DNA from: Xanthomonas campestris pv. campestris str. ATCC 33913
GTDB taxonomy: Bacteria; Pseudomonadota; Gammaproteobacteria; Xanthomonadales; Xanthomonadaceae
DNA: 32,000 nt
NCBI RefSeq assembly: GCF_000007145.1
Contig: NC_003902.1
Coordinates: forward strand, 520,325-552,324
Direction of reading: 5' to 3'
Shown: in pieces, positions 8,856-27,289 of the stretch
Numbering within the stretch: position 1 is the first letter of the stretch
Layout: each line of letters opens with the position of its first letter
Notes under the pieces: generated by a model
Database searches by the model: none
Seen by the model: only the letters and a program-made list of their open reading frames with translations
What the model was told of the DNA's origin: nothing
Translations under genes and position numbers: made by a program

Positions 8856-9380
8856 GAGATGAGAGTCCCCTGATCCTTGAGACGTGGAGCGCTCCCCTGG
8901 TCCGGCCACGTCCCTGGCCGGCAGCGCTGTTCGATTCTGCATAAATTTGCAGGCCTAGGTTGACGATACGGTGACACCGGCGCAGTGGCTGCGACTGCGC
9001 TGGCGGCTGGCCGGGTGGTTCAGAAGCGAAACACCTCCCCGTCTGCCACGCCCGGACGTGCGGCGTCCGATGAGTGGCCGTGTCTCGCGCGGCACGCTGT
9101 GCGGGCAGCCAGCTTGCGCCCGAGCACGGCGGCCCAGCGCTGAAAGCAGCCAGGTAGCCAGGCAATGCGGGCTGTGCTCGCCCAGCCCCGGAACGGGCGC
9201 CAACCAGACGCCGCAGGCATCCACGCCCTCGCACCGGGTGCGGACGAGCAACGGACGCCTGGTTCATCCATCCCGGCCACCCGGGATGCGCATTCACTGG
9301 GGCCACGCCTCGAATGGTTACCGACCTGGACGGCACCGGCGCAGTTCGGTTCCATCCCGGCGGCGACGCCCATCCACTCT

Positions 9381-9471
9381 CAACCGCCAACCGCCAACCG
9401 CCAACCGCCAACCGCCAACCGCCAATCCCCAATCCCCAATCCCCAATCCCCAATCCCCAATCCCCAATCCC
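9381..9471. repeat. Compound heptanucleotide microsatellite (CAACCGC)x6 followed by (CAATCCC)x7
   Basis: Counted directly: six perfect CAACCGC units (9381-9422), then seven perfect CAATCCC units (9423-9471). The array ends 44 bp before the kynA ATG. Confidence 0.95.
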
Positions 9472-9514: not shown

Positions 9515-10411
9515 ATGCCCGTCGACAAGAACCTGCGTGACCTGGAACCCGGCATCCACACCGATCTGGAAGGGCGGCTGACCTACGGCGGCTACCTGCG
9601 CCTGGACCAGTTGCTGAGTGCGCAGCAGCCCTTGTCCGAGCCGGCGCACCACGACGAAATGCTGTTCATCATCCAGCACCAGACCTCCGAGCTGTGGCTG
9701 AAACTGCTGGCCCACGAGCTGCGCGCGGCCATCGTGCACCTGCAGCGCGACGAGGTCTGGCAATGCCGCAAGGTGCTGGCGCGCAGCAAGCAGGTGCTGC
9801 GCCAGCTGACCGAGCAATGGTCGGTGCTGGAAACGCTGACCCCCAGCGAGTACATGGGCTTTCGCGATGTGCTCGGCCCCTCATCGGGCTTCCAGTCGCT
9901 GCAATACCGCTACATCGAGTTCCTGCTGGGCAACAAGAATCCGCAGATGCTGCAGGTGTTCGCCTATGACCCTGCCGGCCAGGCACGGCTGCGCGAAGTA
10001 CTGGAAGCCCCGAGCCTGTACGAGGAATTCCTGCGCTACCTGGCGCGCTTCGGGCATGCGATTCCGCAGCAATACCAGGCCCGCGACTGGACCGCTGCGC
10101 ACGTGGCCGACGACACGCTGCGGCCGGTGTTCGAGCGCATCTACGAAAATACCGACCGCTACTGGCGCGAATATTCGCTGTGCGAAGACCTGGTGGATGT
10201 GGAAACCCAGTTCCAGCTGTGGCGCTTCCGGCACATGCGCACGGTGATGCGGGTGATCGGCTTCAAACGCGGCACCGGCGGCTCCAGTGGCGTGGGGTTC
10301 CTGCAGCAGGCCCTGGCACTGACCTTCTTCCCGGAGCTGTTCGACGTGCGTACGTCCGTAGGCGTGGACAACCGACCGCCGCAGGGGAGTGCGGACGCTG
10401 GGAAGCGCTGA
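9515..10411 (+). CDS. kynA: Tryptophan 2,3-dioxygenase
   Basis: 298 aa, [83 protein letters not shown]. This matches my recollection of the crystallised Xanthomonas campestris TDO. Confidence 0.95.
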
Positions 10412-10501
10412 GCGAGGCAAAAAGCTTGGCAACGCAGGGGGGGCGCTGAAGCTCGGGAGAGCACTTGCTCGGGAAAGCACTTAGTGGAGAAGTTGCTCGA
10501 A

Positions 10502-10542
10502 GCCCCTCTCCCGGCGGGAGAGGGGTTGGGGTGAGGGTACGG
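10502..10542. repeat. REP-like hairpin unit (type A), solo copy
   Basis: gcccctctcccggcgggagaggggttggggtgagggtacgg has the same sequence family and orientation as 15389-15429. Internal hairpin cccctctccc/gggagagggg. Confidence 0.8.
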
Positions 10543-10616
10543 GCCTCATCCCCGGGATCAGCTACTTGCTGATGCTCGTACTTCGGCGATCGGCACCACC
10601 CAGCGACATCGCACCC

Positions 10617-10657
10617 TCATCCGCCCTGCGGGCACCTTCTCCCAGCGGGAGAAGGGG
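10617..10657. repeat. REP-like hairpin unit (type B), intergenic copy
   Basis: tcatccgccctgcgggcaccttctcccagcgggagaagggg, with hairpin ccttctccc/gggagaagg. Partner copy inside E2 at 1764-1807. Confidence 0.7.
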
Positions 10658-14043: not shown

Positions 14044-15159
14044 ATGAGCGCACAACCGAACACCACTGCAACGCGCCCGGACCCGGGCATGCAGGTCACC
14101 ACCTTCGAAAATCCGATGGGCATCGACGGGTTCGAATTCGTCGAATTCGCCGCCCCCGCCGGCCAGGCCGCGCAGTTGCACGACTACTTCCGCAAGATGG
14201 GCTTCACCGCGGTGCTGCGCCATCGCAGCCGCCCGATCACCGTGTATCGCCAGGGCGGGGTGAACTTTCTGCTCAACGAAGACCCGGATTCGTTCGCGGC
14301 CGATTTCGCCGCCGCCCACGGCCCGTGCGCCTGCGGTTTTGCGATCCGCTTCCGCACCCCGGCCGACACCGTGCTGCAGACCGTGCTCGGCAACGGCGGC
14401 GAAGCCGTGCAGAAGAAGCCCGACATGCGCGCGGTGCCGGCGCCGGTGGTCAAGGGCATTGGCGATTGCATGCTGTACCTGGTGGACCGCTACGGCGAGG
14501 CGGGGAGCATCTACGACGCCGACTACGAGGCAATCGAAGGCGCCGACCAGCACCCGGCCGGCTTCGGGCTCACCTTCATCGACCACCTGACCCACAACCT
14601 GTACTTCGGCAACATGCAGCAGTGGTCGGATTACTACGAGCGGCTGTTCAACTTCCGCGAGATCCGCTACTTCGACATCAAGGGCGCCAAGACCGGTTTG
14701 GTGTCCAAGGCGATGACTGCCCCGGACGGCATTGTGCGCATTCCGCTCAATGAGTCTTCCGACCCGAAGAGCCAGATCAACGAATACCTGGACGCGTATC
14801 AGGGCGAAGGCATTCAGCACATCGCCTGCTTCACCGACGACATCTACACCTCGGTGGAACGGATGCGCGCTGCCGGCGTCACATTCCTGGACACGCCGGA
14901 CACCTATTTCGACGTGGTGGACCTGCGCATTCCCGATCATGGTGAAGACGTCGAGCGCCTGCGTCGCAACAAGATCCTGATCGACGCCGACGTGGACACC
15001 AAACAGCGCAAGTTGCTGCAGATCTTCACCACCAACTGCATCGGCCCGATCTTCTTCGAGATCATCCAGCGCAAGGGCAATGAAGGCTTCGGCGAAGGCA
15101 ACTTCCAGGCCTTGTTCGAAAGCATCGAGCGCGATCAGATGAAGCGTGGGGTGCTTTGA
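14044..15159 (+). CDS. hppD: 4-hydroxyphenylpyruvate dioxygenase
   Basis: 371 aa: FENPMGIDGFEFVEFAAP.. ; ..IDHLTHNLYFGNMQQW..; ..GEGIQHIACFTDDIY..; ..QIFTTNCIGPIFFEIIQRKGNEGFGEGNFQALFESIERDQ. GGAGAA precedes the ATG. Confidence 0.95.
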   Translation: MSAQPNTTATRPDPGMQVTTFENPMGIDGFEFVEFAAPAGQAAQLHDYFRKMGFTAVLRHRSRPITVYRQGGVNFLLNEDPDSFAADFAAAHGPCACGFAIRFRTPADTVLQTVLGNGGEAVQKKPDMRAVPAPVVKGIGDCMLYLVDRYGEAGSIYDADYEAIEGADQHPAGFGLTFIDHLTHNLYFGNMQQWSDYYERLFNFREIRYFDIKGAKTGLVSKAMTAPDGIVRIPLNESSDPKSQINEYLDAYQGEGIQHIACFTDDIYTSVERMRAAGVTFLDTPDTYFDVVDLRIPDHGEDVERLRRNKILIDADVDTKQRKLLQIFTTNCIGPIFFEIIQRKGNEGFGEGNFQALFESIERDQMKRGVL

Positions 15160-15388
15160 TAGCCGGGATGGGTGATTCGCTACTCGGGATTTGTGGTTGC
15201 TGCCATTAATTGCTTCGGTGCGGTTTTGAGTGGTGCAGATTGTTGCGGTGCCGCGCCTGGCTGCCCGTGATGTCGGATGTGGTTCCGGTACGGATCCGAC
15301 GAAGCGAGCGGCAAGTGGTCGCGATCAAGCACGACCAGTCAAGGCATTTTTCTGACAACACACAGCAACGAAGACGCACGTAGTCAAA

Positions 15389-15429
15389 GCCCCTCTCCCT
15401 GCGGGAGAGGGGTTGGGGTGAGGGTACGG
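15389..15429. repeat. Left inverted repeat flanking the DUF559 gene (REP-like type A)
   Basis: gcccctctccctgcgggagaggggttggggtgagggtacgg. Its reverse complement recurs at 15785-15825, differing only in the hairpin loop. Confidence 0.85.
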
Positions 15430-15436
15430 TGGAGCG

Positions 15437-15829
15437 ATGAAAATCAAACCACCATTACCCACTGTCACACGCACCCATGCGCGCGCATTACGCAAAGAGC
15501 TGACAGACGCAGAACGCGCACTTTGGCGCTGTCTACGCAGCAACCAGCTACACGATTTCAAGTTCAGACGTCAGCATCCGATTCCGCCCTACATCGCAGA
15601 TTTTTGTTGTATCGATGCAGCATTGATTATTGAGCTGGATGGATCGCAGCACCAAGCATCCAGCGATCAGGCAAGGACGCGGTGGCTTCAATCGAAGGGA
15701 TGGACAGTGCTGCGCTTCTGGAATAACGATGTGTTGTTTTCGCTGGATGCGGTGGTTGAAACGATCTTCAAGATGGTCGCTACGCCGTACCCTCACCCCA
15801 ACCCCTCTCCCGGTGGGAGAGGGGCTTGA
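15437..15829 (+). CDS. DUF559 (Vsr-like endonuclease fold) domain protein
   Basis: 130 aa: ARALRKELTDAERALWRCLRSNQLHDFKFRRQHPIPPYIADFCCIDAALIIELDGSQH..DQARTRWLQSKGWTVLRFWNNDV. The SD GGTGGAG directly follows the left repeat. The last 14 codons and the stop lie inside the right repeat. Confidence 0.85.
   Translation: MKIKPPLPTVTRTHARALRKELTDAERALWRCLRSNQLHDFKFRRQHPIPPYIADFCCIDAALIIELDGSQHQASSDQARTRWLQSKGWTVLRFWNNDVLFSLDAVVETIFKMVATPYPHPNPSPGGRGA
15785..15825. repeat. Right inverted repeat flanking the DUF559 gene (REP-like type A, inverted)
   Basis: ccgtaccctcaccccaacccctctcccggtgggagaggggc is the reverse complement of the 15389-15429 family. Confidence 0.85.
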
Positions 15830-15928
15830 TCCGCCAGGCTTGAGCTCTTTTTCGGTAAGAGCGGCTTGATCCAACTCGATCCCACCCTTCTGCTGTCGTG
15901 GAGGGCGGGTCAACATCCGGACGCACCC

Positions 15929-17233
15929 ATGCACAACGACCAGCGTTACATGACCGGCTTCGGCAATGAATTCGCCAGCGAGGCAGTAGCCGATACCTTG
16001 CCGGTTGGCCAGAACTCGCCGCAGCGTGTGGCGCACGGGCTGTATGCCGAGCAGTTGTCGGGTACTGCATTCACCGCGCCGCGCGGCGAAAATCGGCGCA
16101 GTTGGCTGTACCGCATGCGTCCTGCTGCGGTGCACGGGACGTTCTCGCTGATCGAGCAGTCGCAGTTCCACAACGATTTCGGCCACGGACCGGTGCCGCC
16201 GGACCAGTTGCGCTGGAGCCCGCTGCCGTTGCCGCAGACACCCACCGATTTCATCGATGGCCTGTACACCATGGCCGGGAATGGTAGCCCCGAAGCAATG
16301 AATGGCGTGGCCGTGCATCTGTATGCGGCCAATGCCTCCATGCAGGATCGCTTCTTCTATAACGCCGACGGCGAGCTGCTGCTGGTGCCGCAACTCGGGC
16401 GCCTGCGCGTGCACACCGAGCTCGGCATGCTCGAGCTGGAGCCGCAGCAGATCGGGGTGATTCCGCGCGGCGTGCGCTTCCGGGTCGAGCTACGCGACGG
16501 CACCGCACGTGGCTATGTCTGCGAGAACTTCGGTGGTTTGCTGCACCTGCCCGACCTGGGGCCGATTGGCAGTAATGGCCTGGCGAATCCGCGCGACTTC
16601 GAAACCCCGTGTGCGGCCTTCGAGCAACGCGAAGGCCGCTTTGAACTGGTGGCCAAATTCCAGGGCCACCTGTGGCGTGCGGACATCGGCCATTCGCCAC
16701 TGGACGTGGTGGCCTGGCACGGCAACTACGCGCCGTACCGCTACGACCTGCGCCGCTTCAACACCATCGGCTCGATTAGCTTCGATCATCCAGACCCGAG
16801 TATTTTTACGGTGCTGACCTCGCCCAGCGACACGCACGGCACGGCCAACATGGATTTCGCGATCTTCCCGCCGCGCTGGCTGGTGGCGCAGCACACCTTC
16901 CGCCCACCGTGGTTCCACCGCAATGTGGCCAGCGAGTTCATGGGGCTGGTGCACGGCGTGTACGACGCCAAGGCCGACGGCTTCGCGCCGGGCGGTGCGT
17001 CGCTGCACAACTGCATGAGCGGCCACGGCCCGGACGCGGCCACCTTCGACAAGGCCTCGCAAGCGGACCTGTCGCGGCCGGACGTCATCACCGAGACGAT
17101 GGCCTTCATGTTCGAAACCCGCGCCGTGCTGCGCCCCACCGCGCAAGCGCTGCACGCACCGCATCGGCAGGGCGATTATCAGCAGTGCTGGGCGGGGTTG
17201 CGCAAAGCATTTCAGGCGCCGCCGGCTAGCTGA
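15929..17233 (+). CDS. hmgA: Homogentisate 1,2-dioxygenase
   Basis: [52 protein letters not shown].. is a canonical HmgA N-terminus, and the protein is conserved throughout. The ATG at 15929 is preferred over the track TTG at 15866. Confidence 0.92.
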
Positions 17234-17549: not shown

Positions 17550-17695
17550 GAGCAGCTATCAAAAACGACTGCACGGCCGCCAGGCGGGCGCGGCCGCTGC
17601 ACGGAATCGGCATGTACCCCTTACACTCCGGTTCCTCCGCGCCGCCGGCCGCATCCACCTGACAACAACTGCTCGCTACGTTTTATTAGCTGCTC
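17550..17695 (-). repeat. 146-bp element with terminal inverted repeats (MITE-like or structured RNA), copy A
   Basis: Ends GAGCAGCTATCAAAAACG / CGTTTTATTAGCTGCTC are inverted repeats. Internal GC hairpin cggccgc-caggcgggc-gcggccg. Paralogous to 27150-27289 in the same orientation. Confidence 0.6.
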
Positions 17696-26896: not shown

Positions 26897-27149
26897 GTTC
26901 CCTCCCAGGAATGGCCCAAGCATACGCGCGCGGATGGCCGCAGTGGCGCTTGCGGGGCAGCTGCCGGGAACAGAACCTGCCACGCACCAGCGCGTGGCAG
27001 GTTGCCTGTGTTGCGTATCACGCTCCGCGCACTGGCAATTGCCCGCCAGGCGGGCGAGGGTGGTGCCGCCAGCGGCGTCGTCCATTGATCACGCCGGTTC
27101 TCGCGCACCGGCCTCGCCCACTGCAAACGACGGCCCGCAGCCAGACCTA

Positions 27150-27289
27150 GAGCAGCGATCAAAACGACTGCGCAGCCGCCAGGCGGGCGCGGCCGGTGCT
27201 TGAAATCGGCATGTCCACACGTACACGCCGGTTCCTCCGCGCATTCCGCGCCCACCTGACGACTGCTCGCTACGTTTTGTTAGCCGCTC
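27150..27289 (-). repeat. 140-bp element with terminal inverted repeats (MITE-like or structured RNA), copy B
   Basis: Ends GAGCAGCGATCAAAACG / CGTTTTGTTAGCCGCTC. The body aligns by eye with 17550-17695 at most positions, with a few small indels. Confidence 0.6.

Follow-up and report, generated by a model that had tools for sequence, protein, structure and literature searches.

A DUF559 nuclease gene framed by inverted triplex-motif repeats between hppD and hmgA in Xanthomonas: a candidate nuclease-repeat cassette

Introduction

Why should a small nuclease gene sit exactly between two inverted copies of a hairpin repeat, in the gap between two genes that are otherwise direct neighbors? The question is raised by a 32,000-nt stretch of Xanthomonas campestris pv. 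campestris str. ATCC 33913 (NC_003902.1, positions 520,325 to 552,324; hereafter the window), where an open reading frame (ORF) at 15437-15829 on the + strand encodes a 130-aa DUF559 protein bracketed by an inverted repeat and lying between hppD and hmgA. The answer favored here, at slightly better than even odds, is that gene and repeats form a nuclease-repeat cassette, an old, selfish or semi-domesticated resident of its site, which would be analogous but not homologous to the association of repetitive extragenic palindromes (REPs) with REP-associated tyrosine transposases (RAYTs), the nuclease presumably acting on the repeat. The broader proposal that DUF559/YcjD proteins are the cognate nucleases of BoxC/PIT/TMECO repeats throughout bacteria, and so constitute an independent second gene-repeat symbiosis of the REP/RAYT kind, is more tentative and falls a little short of an even chance.

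BoxC, PIT, and triplex repeats have been known since the 1990s and occur in thousands of copies in proteobacterial and cyanobacterial genomes; earlier work on BoxC and PIT is reportedly that of Bachellier in the 1990s and of Hoyne and Maher in 2000. In this motif, a G-rich block comes after a pyrimidine/purine hairpin; the block is a mirror of the purine stem and is able to fold back as a third strand. DUF559 is, to our knowledge, a very large family of small Vsr-fold nucleases without an assigned role, and the only in vivo datum that we know of for any member concerns the Caulobacter protein VsrA. The repeat class, the protein family, and the gene-plus-hairpin-repeat kind of system exemplified by REP/RAYT are already known. 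What appears to be new is the pairing of DUF559 with BoxC/triplex-motif repeats, on a nuclease unrelated to RAYT. A literature search found no publication linking DUF559 or ycjD to inverted repeats, REP, BoxC, or triplex, which does not prove absence. What comes closest is an enrichment of DUF559, left unexplained, among the inversion targets predicted in one study (PMC9881135).

A nuclease gene between two inverted hairpin repeats

A repeat scan of the window places the inverted arms at 15387-15437 and 15777-15827, each 51 nt long and together 92% complementary. Among the 25 longest inverted pairs listed for the window, the others of at least 40 nt reach no more than 74% complementarity, the pairing of a solo copy with the right arm excepted. 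Read directly, the non-coding left arm (15384-15429, + strand) consists of tcaaag, CCCCTCTCCC, tgc, GGGAGAGGGG, tt, GGGGTGAGGG, and tacgg, that is, a stem (15390-15399), a loop (15400-15402), the returning stem (15403-15412), TT, a G-rich third strand (15415-15424), and TACGG. It is a triplex motif of the BoxC/PIT/TMECO type. It ends 7 nt before the ATG at 15437, and a likely Shine-Dalgarno sequence of the gene, GGTGGAG (15428-15434), lies partly within the extended inverted repeat. The right arm (15785-15830, − strand) is the same motif inverted, with the complement of the third strand at 15790-15799 and the hairpin at 15802-15824. It encodes the last 14 codons of the gene (PYPHPNPSPGGRGA) and the TGA stop at 15827-15829. 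A preliminary description of the window had claimed this framing of the gene, with a left repeat ending just before the Shine-Dalgarno sequence and start codon and a right repeat forming its reverse complement and supplying the gene's end; the present analysis bears it out, adding only that besides the 3-nt loop the right arm differs in one A at its outer end. The flanking genes are likewise as first described, hppD (4-hydroxyphenylpyruvate dioxygenase; 14044-15159, + strand) upstream and hmgA (homogentisate 1,2-dioxygenase; 15929-17233, + strand) downstream, both confirmed by Pfam and by synteny.

The GC fraction is 0.52-0.57 inside the cassette versus about 0.65 in its flanks. No sigma-70-like promoter was found in 15100-16000, and a scan of the same interval returned one weak terminator-like site (15822-15841) that is not above shuffle level. 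An Rfam scan of the cassette gave sub-threshold chance matches only, there being no Rfam family for the motif, and the PADLOC defence models had no match at the cassette.

By their sequence, the arms can be assigned to the known BoxC/PIT/TMECO class of intrastrand-triplex motifs and are not a novel repeat. The published TMECO pattern reads CCCTCNCCC N3-6 GGGNGAGGG N3 GGGNGAGGG (Holder et al., 2015, PMC4666352). The window copies do not match this strict form, with its N3 second loop, since their second loop has 4 nt or, if the stems are counted as 10 nt, 2 nt. GGGGTGAGGG mirrors GGGAGAGGGG (G*G, A/T*A), which would permit a purine-motif triplex, and the detector accepts all three window copies. 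With a second loop of 2-5 nt, the pattern occurs exactly three times in the window (10504, 15391, and 15790) and not once in 200 shuffles. The hairpins have folding energies of −11.9 to −12.5 kcal/mol (z about −2.6 to −3.0).

The third of these copies (10497-10542, + strand) is the solo repeat that had been noticed earlier; it is 96% identical to the left arm, and no DUF559 gene adjoins it. About 70 nt away it faces a second-type arm (10614-10656, − strand; CCCTCATCC, a small hairpin, CCTTCTCCC AGC GGGAGAAGG). Judged by sequence, the two look like a gene-less inverted pair, comparable to the pairs of type A and type B in E. coli. The motif is thus seen both solo and as inverted pairs of two subtypes, in the window (10497-10656), in one hppD-hmgA locus (L015), and in viral contigs. 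A further copy of the second-type arm, 83% identical to 10614-10654 (..TCCGCCCTGCGGGCACCTTCTCCC..), lies at 1761-1801 with no first-type partner nearby.

The class has been surveyed across 262 proteobacterial genomes, with 3610 copies in all and 23 in E. coli K-12, the latter including five inverted pairs of two subtypes. The motif forms a triplex in vitro, its loci show genomic instability and are rearrangement hot spots, and any transposase, integrase, or other mobility function near the motifs is explicitly reported as lacking. Xanthomonas genomes have 1-3 TMECO copies each (PMC4666352, Table S1), which are essentially the cassette arms described here. Outside the hppD-hmgA spot, only 2 copies of the arm were found in 640 kb of related loci. 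Given these counts, the idea that the arm represents an abundant REP-like family of this genome was rejected.

Recurrence of the gene-repeat pairing

A tblastn search of plasmids and chromids with the DUF559 core returned 41 records, 16 of which were fetched. These 16 loci span at least six phyla or classes (Azospirillum, Sinorhizobium, Sphingomonas, Sphingobium, Methylobacterium, Neisseria, Photobacterium, E. coli, Deinococcus, and three cyanobacteria), and in most of them inverted repeats made of C-rich/G-rich hairpins and a tail surround the gene. Flanking repeats measure 56 nt in Deinococcus (95-98%), 114 nt in S. meliloti (96%), and 40 nt in Pseudanabaena (100%). They are one-sided in four of the 16 (Sinorhizobium sp. 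K101, Photobacterium, Methylobacterium, and E. coli), and in Synechocystis the scan found no flanking repeat, motifs being visible by eye on both sides. The gene typically lies between adjacent genes of unrelated operons, such as paaD-paaZ, pntAA-pntAB, yqeY-dnaG, those of a 4-hydroxyphenylacetate cluster, or the methylcrotonyl-CoA carboxylase genes. Arm sequence varies by protein clade, and two paralogues in a single Sphingomonas genome have different arm types. The arms that accompany this one protein family differ in sequence between distant phyla, which suggests a cognate relation between gene and repeat.

A second sample comprises 80 metagenomic loci picked by protein similarity alone, in which a flanking inverted repeat was scored at a threshold of at least 14. 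Such repeats flank the gene in 35 of the 67 loci with both flanks available, versus 1 of 59 positional controls (Fisher p=2e-11), and a triplex motif lies within 150 nt of the gene in 51 of the 80. Motif density is 1.88/kb near the gene and 0.148/kb in the remaining flanks, a 13-fold difference. The linkage of DUF559 genes to this class of repeat accordingly extends to Alphaproteobacteria, Enterobacteriaceae, Neisseria, Deinococcus, cyanobacteria, and metagenomic loci, a result that favors the idea put forward in the preliminary description. Most motif copies do not adjoin a DUF559 gene; REPs relate to their RAYT likewise, most copies lying away from the gene.

Multiplication of cassettes and motifs was also observed. 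Whole DUF559 cassettes are tandemly duplicated in two metagenome contigs, L199:300-1190, where a gene-less motif pair precedes each cassette copy, and L155:2330-4014, where the two copies encode identical proteins (100%). Arrays of triplex motifs in alternating orientation lie directly 3′ of DUF559 in Photobacterium sp. GJ3 (17 motifs, L112:1880-3321) and in N. gonorrhoeae (6 motifs, L107:2040-2736).

The E. coli homologue, ycjD, is found in the order sapF-ycjD-fabI, its 3′ end overlapping a motif that is followed by a motif pair. Phylogroups A, B1, and C (plus ST69 and ST182) carry the gene, with eefRABCD in its place elsewhere (PMC12817139). Published TMECO counts are 19-30 in A/B1/C strains (MG1655 23, 55989 29, IAI1 29, HS 19, and BL21 20), 1-2 in B2 strains (CFT073, UTI89, IHE3034, S88, and JJ1886), and 6-13 across D/E/F (IAI39 6, O157:H7 11, and 042 12-13; PMC4666352 Tables S1/S7). 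In a spread sample of 60 complete genomes, those with ycjD have 2-5 further motif loci detectable by megablast, and those without it mostly have 1 in all. The co-variation of ycjD and repeat number in E. coli is suggestive. In the motif-rich Enterobacter asburiae, the homologue lies at hemW-yggN, its end overlapping a motif such that the stop codon sits in the hairpin loop. Three Enterobacter contigs from Logan assemblies (L129, L130, and L131) stop 5 nt after the DUF559 stop codon, at the triplex motif, as fits short-read assemblies breaking at a dispersed repeat. Among the named top matches to YcjD no Salmonella protein appears, which is consistent with the reported absence of TMECO from Salmonella but is no test of it.

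Residence, loss, and replacement at one chromosomal site

A scan of species-representative genomes with HmgA yielded 80 loci, 62 of which have hppD directly upstream. The gap between the two genes holds a DUF559 cassette in 13 of the 62, a degraded DUF559 copy in 1 (L072), a single hairpin of the form AAG-CCCCTCTCCC-NNN-GGGAGAGGGG-CTT in 6, and two arms without a gene in 1 (L015), while about 30 have a short gap devoid of any such element. The single-hairpin count comes from reading the sequences, as the automatic gap classifier was too strict for variant hairpins; the hosts are X. vasicola, X. arboricola pv. populi, a Pseudoxanthomonas, Luteimonas kalidii, S. acidaminiphila, and an Arenimonas. 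One of the 13 cassettes (L009) is frameshifted, and the X. oryzae protein P0119 is truncated. The cassette is therefore not fixed among relatives, in line with the mobility proposed for it at the outset. Together with the repeat association of DUF559 genes elsewhere, this makes the REP/RAYT analogy apt.

At this same site the cassette is found in Xanthomonas groups 1 and 2, Stenotrophomonas, Pseudoxanthomonas, Dokdonella, Rhodanobacter, Arenimonas, Aquimonas, and others. It always has inverted arms in X. hawaiiensis, a Stenotrophomonas, Pseudoxanthomonas japonensis, Dokdonella, and several metagenomic Lysobacterales, and in all of the more than 20 Lysobacterales loci examined DUF559 and hmgA point the same way. 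Synteny across genera led us to reject a recent insertion in this strain, and by sequence comparison the cassette has long been lodged at this very site across the order Lysobacterales. The same lineage of cassette was not found at other sites in five context look-ups (P0001, P0023, P0113, P0084, and P0101; 60-95% identity) or among the HmgA loci.

Upstream of the lone hairpin, X. vasicola and X. arboricola pv. populi are homologous in sequence to the window, and the gene is present in other X. arboricola strains and in both Xanthomonas groups. These two empty sites are consequently best read as deletions between the two hairpins that would have left one behind. The hairpins being palindromes, each repeats the other in direct and in inverted orientation alike. 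Their duplication may reflect a duplicated target, or a hairpin may merely belong to every repeat unit.

Long residence is only part of the history. P. japonensis and two strains of P. mexicana share 96 and 94% identity in HmgA and 97 and 98% in HppD, yet 56 and 57% in DUF559, and X. hawaiiensis and Xanthomonas sp. AmX2 share 90% in HmgA and 94% in HppD, yet 55% in DUF559. Within each discordant pair the DUF559 genes read the arm in different frames. Near-identical flanks around divergent DUF559 genes show that divergent cassette lineages have replaced each other at the same spot, and purely vertical inheritance from one ancient insertion was rejected as the whole story because of this discordance. 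Patchy presence, decayed copies, and discordance together form the pattern of a homing-type selfish gene and not of a housekeeping gene.

The left arms of 16 cassettes share a mean pairwise identity of 0.90 and the right arms one of 0.93, versus 0.61 for the coding DNA. The differences in the arms are concentrated in the 3-nt loop, the stems and third strand being nearly invariant across genera. As synonymous sites of the coding DNA are saturated (pS 0.66-0.82), the non-coding left arm must be under strong constraint or concerted evolution. The right arm is translated in two frames among lineages, as ..RTLTPTPLPxGEGL or as ..PYPHPNPSPxGRGA, which indicates that it is conserved as DNA and not as peptide. 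In three loci (L055:2222-2959, L059:2078-2878, and L065:2886-2959) the arms are tandemly multiplied with a period of about 96-110 nt, which lengthens the DUF559 ORF by repeated ..RTLTPTPLPxGEGL.. units.

In Lysobacterales, the hppD-hmgA junction serves as a hot spot for insertions in general. In metagenome-assembled genomes, a Frateuria, and a Rudaea, the gap is filled by a GIY-YIG gene (PF01541, E about 2e-18; L045:2548-2963, L049:2566-2973, and L058:2551-2955) lying between the arms of an inverted repeat of its own (CCGTTCGCCCTGAGCGTAGC; 19-25 nt, 91-95% complementary); here a nuclease gene and an inverted repeat make up a second cassette at this hot spot. Other inserts include a minus-strand membrane ORF in gaps of about 530-640 nt (L041, L042, L044, and L048), an unrelated ORF of about 170-180 aa in Lysobacter (L018, L024, and L029), and a 230-aa ORF in Luteimonas abyssi (L019); the membrane ORF that was scanned, from L048, matches DUF5362. 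Palindromic pairs unrelated to the triplex motif are also present in the gap (L028:2726-2979, L053:2864-2982, and L051:2889-2979), for example CACGGATGAACACGGATAAACACGGATAA with its inverted copy, and GGGTGCGCCTAGGCGCACC.

A small putative nuclease with a predicted homing endonuclease-like fold

The 130-aa protein is assigned to DUF559 (PF04480) with E=3.9e-40 and 136.6 bits against a cut-off of 20.6, over residues 12-114, and conserved residues and predicted fold mark it as a putative PD-(D/E)XK (Vsr-fold) nuclease of the DUF559/YcjD family. The only other Pfam signal is a sub-threshold one to MTES_1575, with no match to HUH/Y1 transposases. Conservation reaching from Xanthomonas as far as Deinococcus and cyanobacteria marks D55, E66, D68, and H72, which are invariant in 27 close homologues and retained in at least 17 of 18 sequences of distantly related organisms. 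The nearest homologues are Xanthomonas proteins with 95% identity. The protein is 52% identical to E. coli YcjD across the domain and reaches 122.4 bits against the cut-off of 218 of the NCBIfam YcjD equivalog model (NF007294), so that it is to be classed, on sequence, as a homologue of YcjD and not as its equivalog.

A profile search matches PDB 3HRL, the structural-genomics "endonuclease-like protein" NGO0050 of N. gonorrhoeae, with E=6e-33. The AlphaFold model (mean predicted local distance difference test 73, core 80-90) superposes on 3HRL with a template modeling (TM) score of 0.86. The next-closest fold found by Foldseek is the homing endonuclease I-Bth0305I (3R3P; TM 0.76, E 2e-4), which the sequence profile matches at E=0.49 only, while E. 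coli Vsr (1VSR) is a far weaker fold match (E=0.1, TM 0.47-0.48). Neither the Pfam Vsr profile (PF03852) nor the NCBIfam Vsr model matches at E<=0.01. Residues 118-130, encoded by the right arm, are predicted to be disordered. There are no extra domains (no NUMOD/HTH), and the gene is not in an intron or intein. With a dN/dS of 0.10-0.34, the protein is evidently functional and under purifying selection.

DNA damage occurs in vivo with the Caulobacter DUF559 protein VsrA when a methyltransferase is missing; VsrA is tied to a cytosine methyltransferase and interpreted as a mismatch repair enzyme, not as repeat-linked (PMC12907096). This damage shows nuclease activity of a DUF559 protein. For the present cassette no linkage to a C5-cytosine methyltransferase was seen, the neighbors being hppD and hmgA in all syntenic loci.

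Relation to known gene-repeat and homing systems

The arms are built like BoxC/PIT/TMECO and differ little from it in sequence (CCCTCNCCC, loop, GGGNGAGGG, short loop, GGGNGAGGG), and they share with it solo copies and inverted pairs of two subtypes, conserved stems with variable loops, and a wide distribution in Proteobacteria and cyanobacteria. They differ in the length of the second loop, which has 3 nt in the published motif. Published work, moreover, gives that motif no associated gene, mobility function, or role beyond instability (PMC4666352), whereas the cassette has a nuclease gene enclosed by two copies, one of which extends over the 3′ end of that gene.

With REPs, their inverted doublets (REPINs), and RAYTs, the cassette shares a single-copy nuclease-type gene placed between inverted copies of a short hairpin repeat and resident at one locus, a repeat that also occurs without the gene, solo or as inverted doublets, and, in E. 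coli, a repeat abundance that follows gene presence. RAYTs, however, are HUH/Y1 transposases related to the TnpA of IS200/IS605, while DUF559 is a non-homologous PD-(D/E)XK family with no known strand-transfer chemistry. The dispersed, many-copy state of the repeat is seen in E. coli (19-30 copies) but not in Xanthomonas.

Free-standing homing endonucleases ("intronless homing", e.g. phage T4 Seg/Mob) offer another parallel, namely a small nuclease gene wedged between conserved genes at a fixed site, with patchy distribution, empty sites, degraded copies, and a phylogeny discordant with that of the flanks. The cassette differs from them in being bacterial-chromosomal and not phage-borne, in having its own inverted repeats, and in that the presumed target hairpin is duplicated in the occupied allele. 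To I-Bth0305I, a Vsr-like EDxHD homing endonuclease (PMC3239194), the modeled likeness is confined to the catalytic fold: the cassette protein lacks the N-terminal NUMOD/HTH region and is neither intron- nor intein-borne. YcjD, NGO0050, and VsrA belong to the same family and share the D..ExD..H residues. The end of ycjD likewise overlaps a triplex motif, but at other sites (sapF-fabI in E. coli and hemW-yggN in Enterobacter), and VsrA is set apart by its methyltransferase-linked interpretation (PMC12907096). As regards miniature inverted-repeat transposable elements (MITEs) and insertion sequences, terminal inverted repeats are present, and no transposase is nearby.

A model and its alternatives

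Anatomy, conservation, polymorphism of the site, discordant phylogenies, and the gene-repeat linkage across phyla are directly observed; to these the model adds repeat binding or cleavage by DUF559 and homing, both of which we infer. The DUF559 nuclease would recognize the repeat as a hairpin, triplex, or cruciform and nick or cut there. Breaks in cassette-less or repeat-only copies would be repaired from a cassette-bearing copy, a homing-like gene conversion that would keep or reinstate the cassette at its site, and the same activity may accompany the spread of gene-less copies in E. coli, Enterobacter, and cyanobacteria. Purifying selection would keep the protein, and the arms would be held near-invariant as DNA. 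Occasionally the cassette could be lost by deletion between the two hairpins, leaving one; in some lineages it would decay, and elsewhere it would be replaced in situ by divergent lineages arriving horizontally.

Several observations weigh against this model. The cassette allele keeps two intact hairpins, whereas classical homing destroys its target. All close relatives (at least about 58% identity) that were looked up or recovered are at one site, no transposition being seen in the clade, and the repeat has essentially not spread in Xanthomonas, with 1-3 copies per genome and one extra copy in the window, so that trans-mobilization finds no support there. About half of the metagenomic DUF559 loci have no clear flanking inverted repeat, in Deinococcus and Synechocystis the arms have the opposite polarity relative to the gene, and DUF559 is found in 0 of 16 viral contigs that carry the exact arm, many of which hold gene-less inverted pairs. 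The co-variation in E. coli rests on few independent phylogenetic contrasts. Of the small selfish or mobile cassette first envisaged, the REP/RAYT analogy stands; the repeat class, though, is a known one, the insertion is old in Lysobacterales, and the repeat has not proliferated in Xanthomonas.

The main alternative, which we regard as unlikely, is that the arms act in cis to insulate, terminate, stabilize, or translationally silence the mRNA of a potentially toxic nuclease that works elsewhere, for instance in methylation-linked repair or restriction. Here, as in two other loci (L001 and L004), the inverted repeat (15387-15437) runs through the Shine-Dalgarno sequence to the start codon, so that pairing of the arms in the transcript could occlude translation initiation. 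The absence of a sigma-70-like promoter from the cassette means that expression may depend on read-through, and both the position of the Enterobacter stop codon in the hairpin loop and the functional tie of VsrA to a methyltransferase agree with such an arrangement. A cis role leaves unexplained, however, the dozens to hundreds of gene-less copies in E. coli and Enterobacter and the fact that their number follows ycjD. The loops of the two arms are often not mutually complementary, which points to selection on each local motif and not on long-range pairing. The G-rich third strand, which would have no role in a plain terminator, is also kept in solo copies, and according to Maher's group, as cited in one later paper (PMC4666352), the elements have no promoter or terminator activity.

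It is quite improbable that DUF559 is an ordinary Vsr-like mismatch repair enzyme of the host and that the repeats are independent, instability-prone sequences accumulating in the same gaps. Many homologues are indeed annotated by pipelines as "very-short-patch-repair endonuclease", purifying selection acts on the protein, triplex-motif loci are rearrangement hot spots (PMC4666352), and the hppD-hmgA gap takes other inserts as well. Independence is nevertheless hard to reconcile with the 13-fold higher motif density within 150 nt of DUF559, with flanking repeats at 35/67 loci vs 1/59 controls, and with the recurrence of the paired inverted geometry across phyla; the protein, for its part, has neither a Vsr match nor a methyltransferase neighbor and a fold nearer to a homing endonuclease than to Vsr, and patchy presence, decay, and lineage swapping at one site are unexpected of a housekeeping gene. 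Still a little less credible is a MITE-like element moved by an unlinked transposase with DUF559 as mere cargo. Such an element would account for the terminal inverted repeats and for the gene-less pairs 30-120 nt apart that are common, and a palindromic target, once duplicated, might be what the flanking hairpin represents, but no transposase has been found near the motifs (PMC4666352) or beside the cassettes studied here, the same "cargo" family has differing arms in distant phyla, and no jumps to new sites are seen in this clade. Programmed inversion of the gene as an on/off switch would accord with the odds ratio of 14.3 for "DUF559 domain-containing protein" among predicted inversion targets (PMC9881135), an enrichment attributable to the flanking inverted repeat overlapping the end of the coding sequence. 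With a uniform orientation relative to hmgA in more than 20 Lysobacterales loci and no invertase nearby, this switch was rejected as very improbable.

Other repeats in the window

Two further repeats were recorded. A heptanucleotide tandem array, (CAACCGC)n passing into (CAATCCC)n, occupies 9367-9471, just upstream of an ORF starting at 9515. A 54-nt direct repeat, 89% identical and containing a GC-rich palindrome (GCCGCCAGGCGGGC..), lies at 17562-17615 and 27161-27214 (and 27043-27066) and looks like a different REP-like intergenic repeat family.

Biological significance

The consistent cross-phylum linkage gives both an orphan repeat and DUF559 a candidate partner. If the nuclease-repeat reading is true, it would explain a 30-year-old orphan repeat family together with a very large domain of unknown function, and would provide a second, mechanistically different example of the gene-repeat association typified by REP/RAYT. 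A homing-like nuclease cassette would, moreover, have persisted at a single site in the chromosome through a bacterial order.

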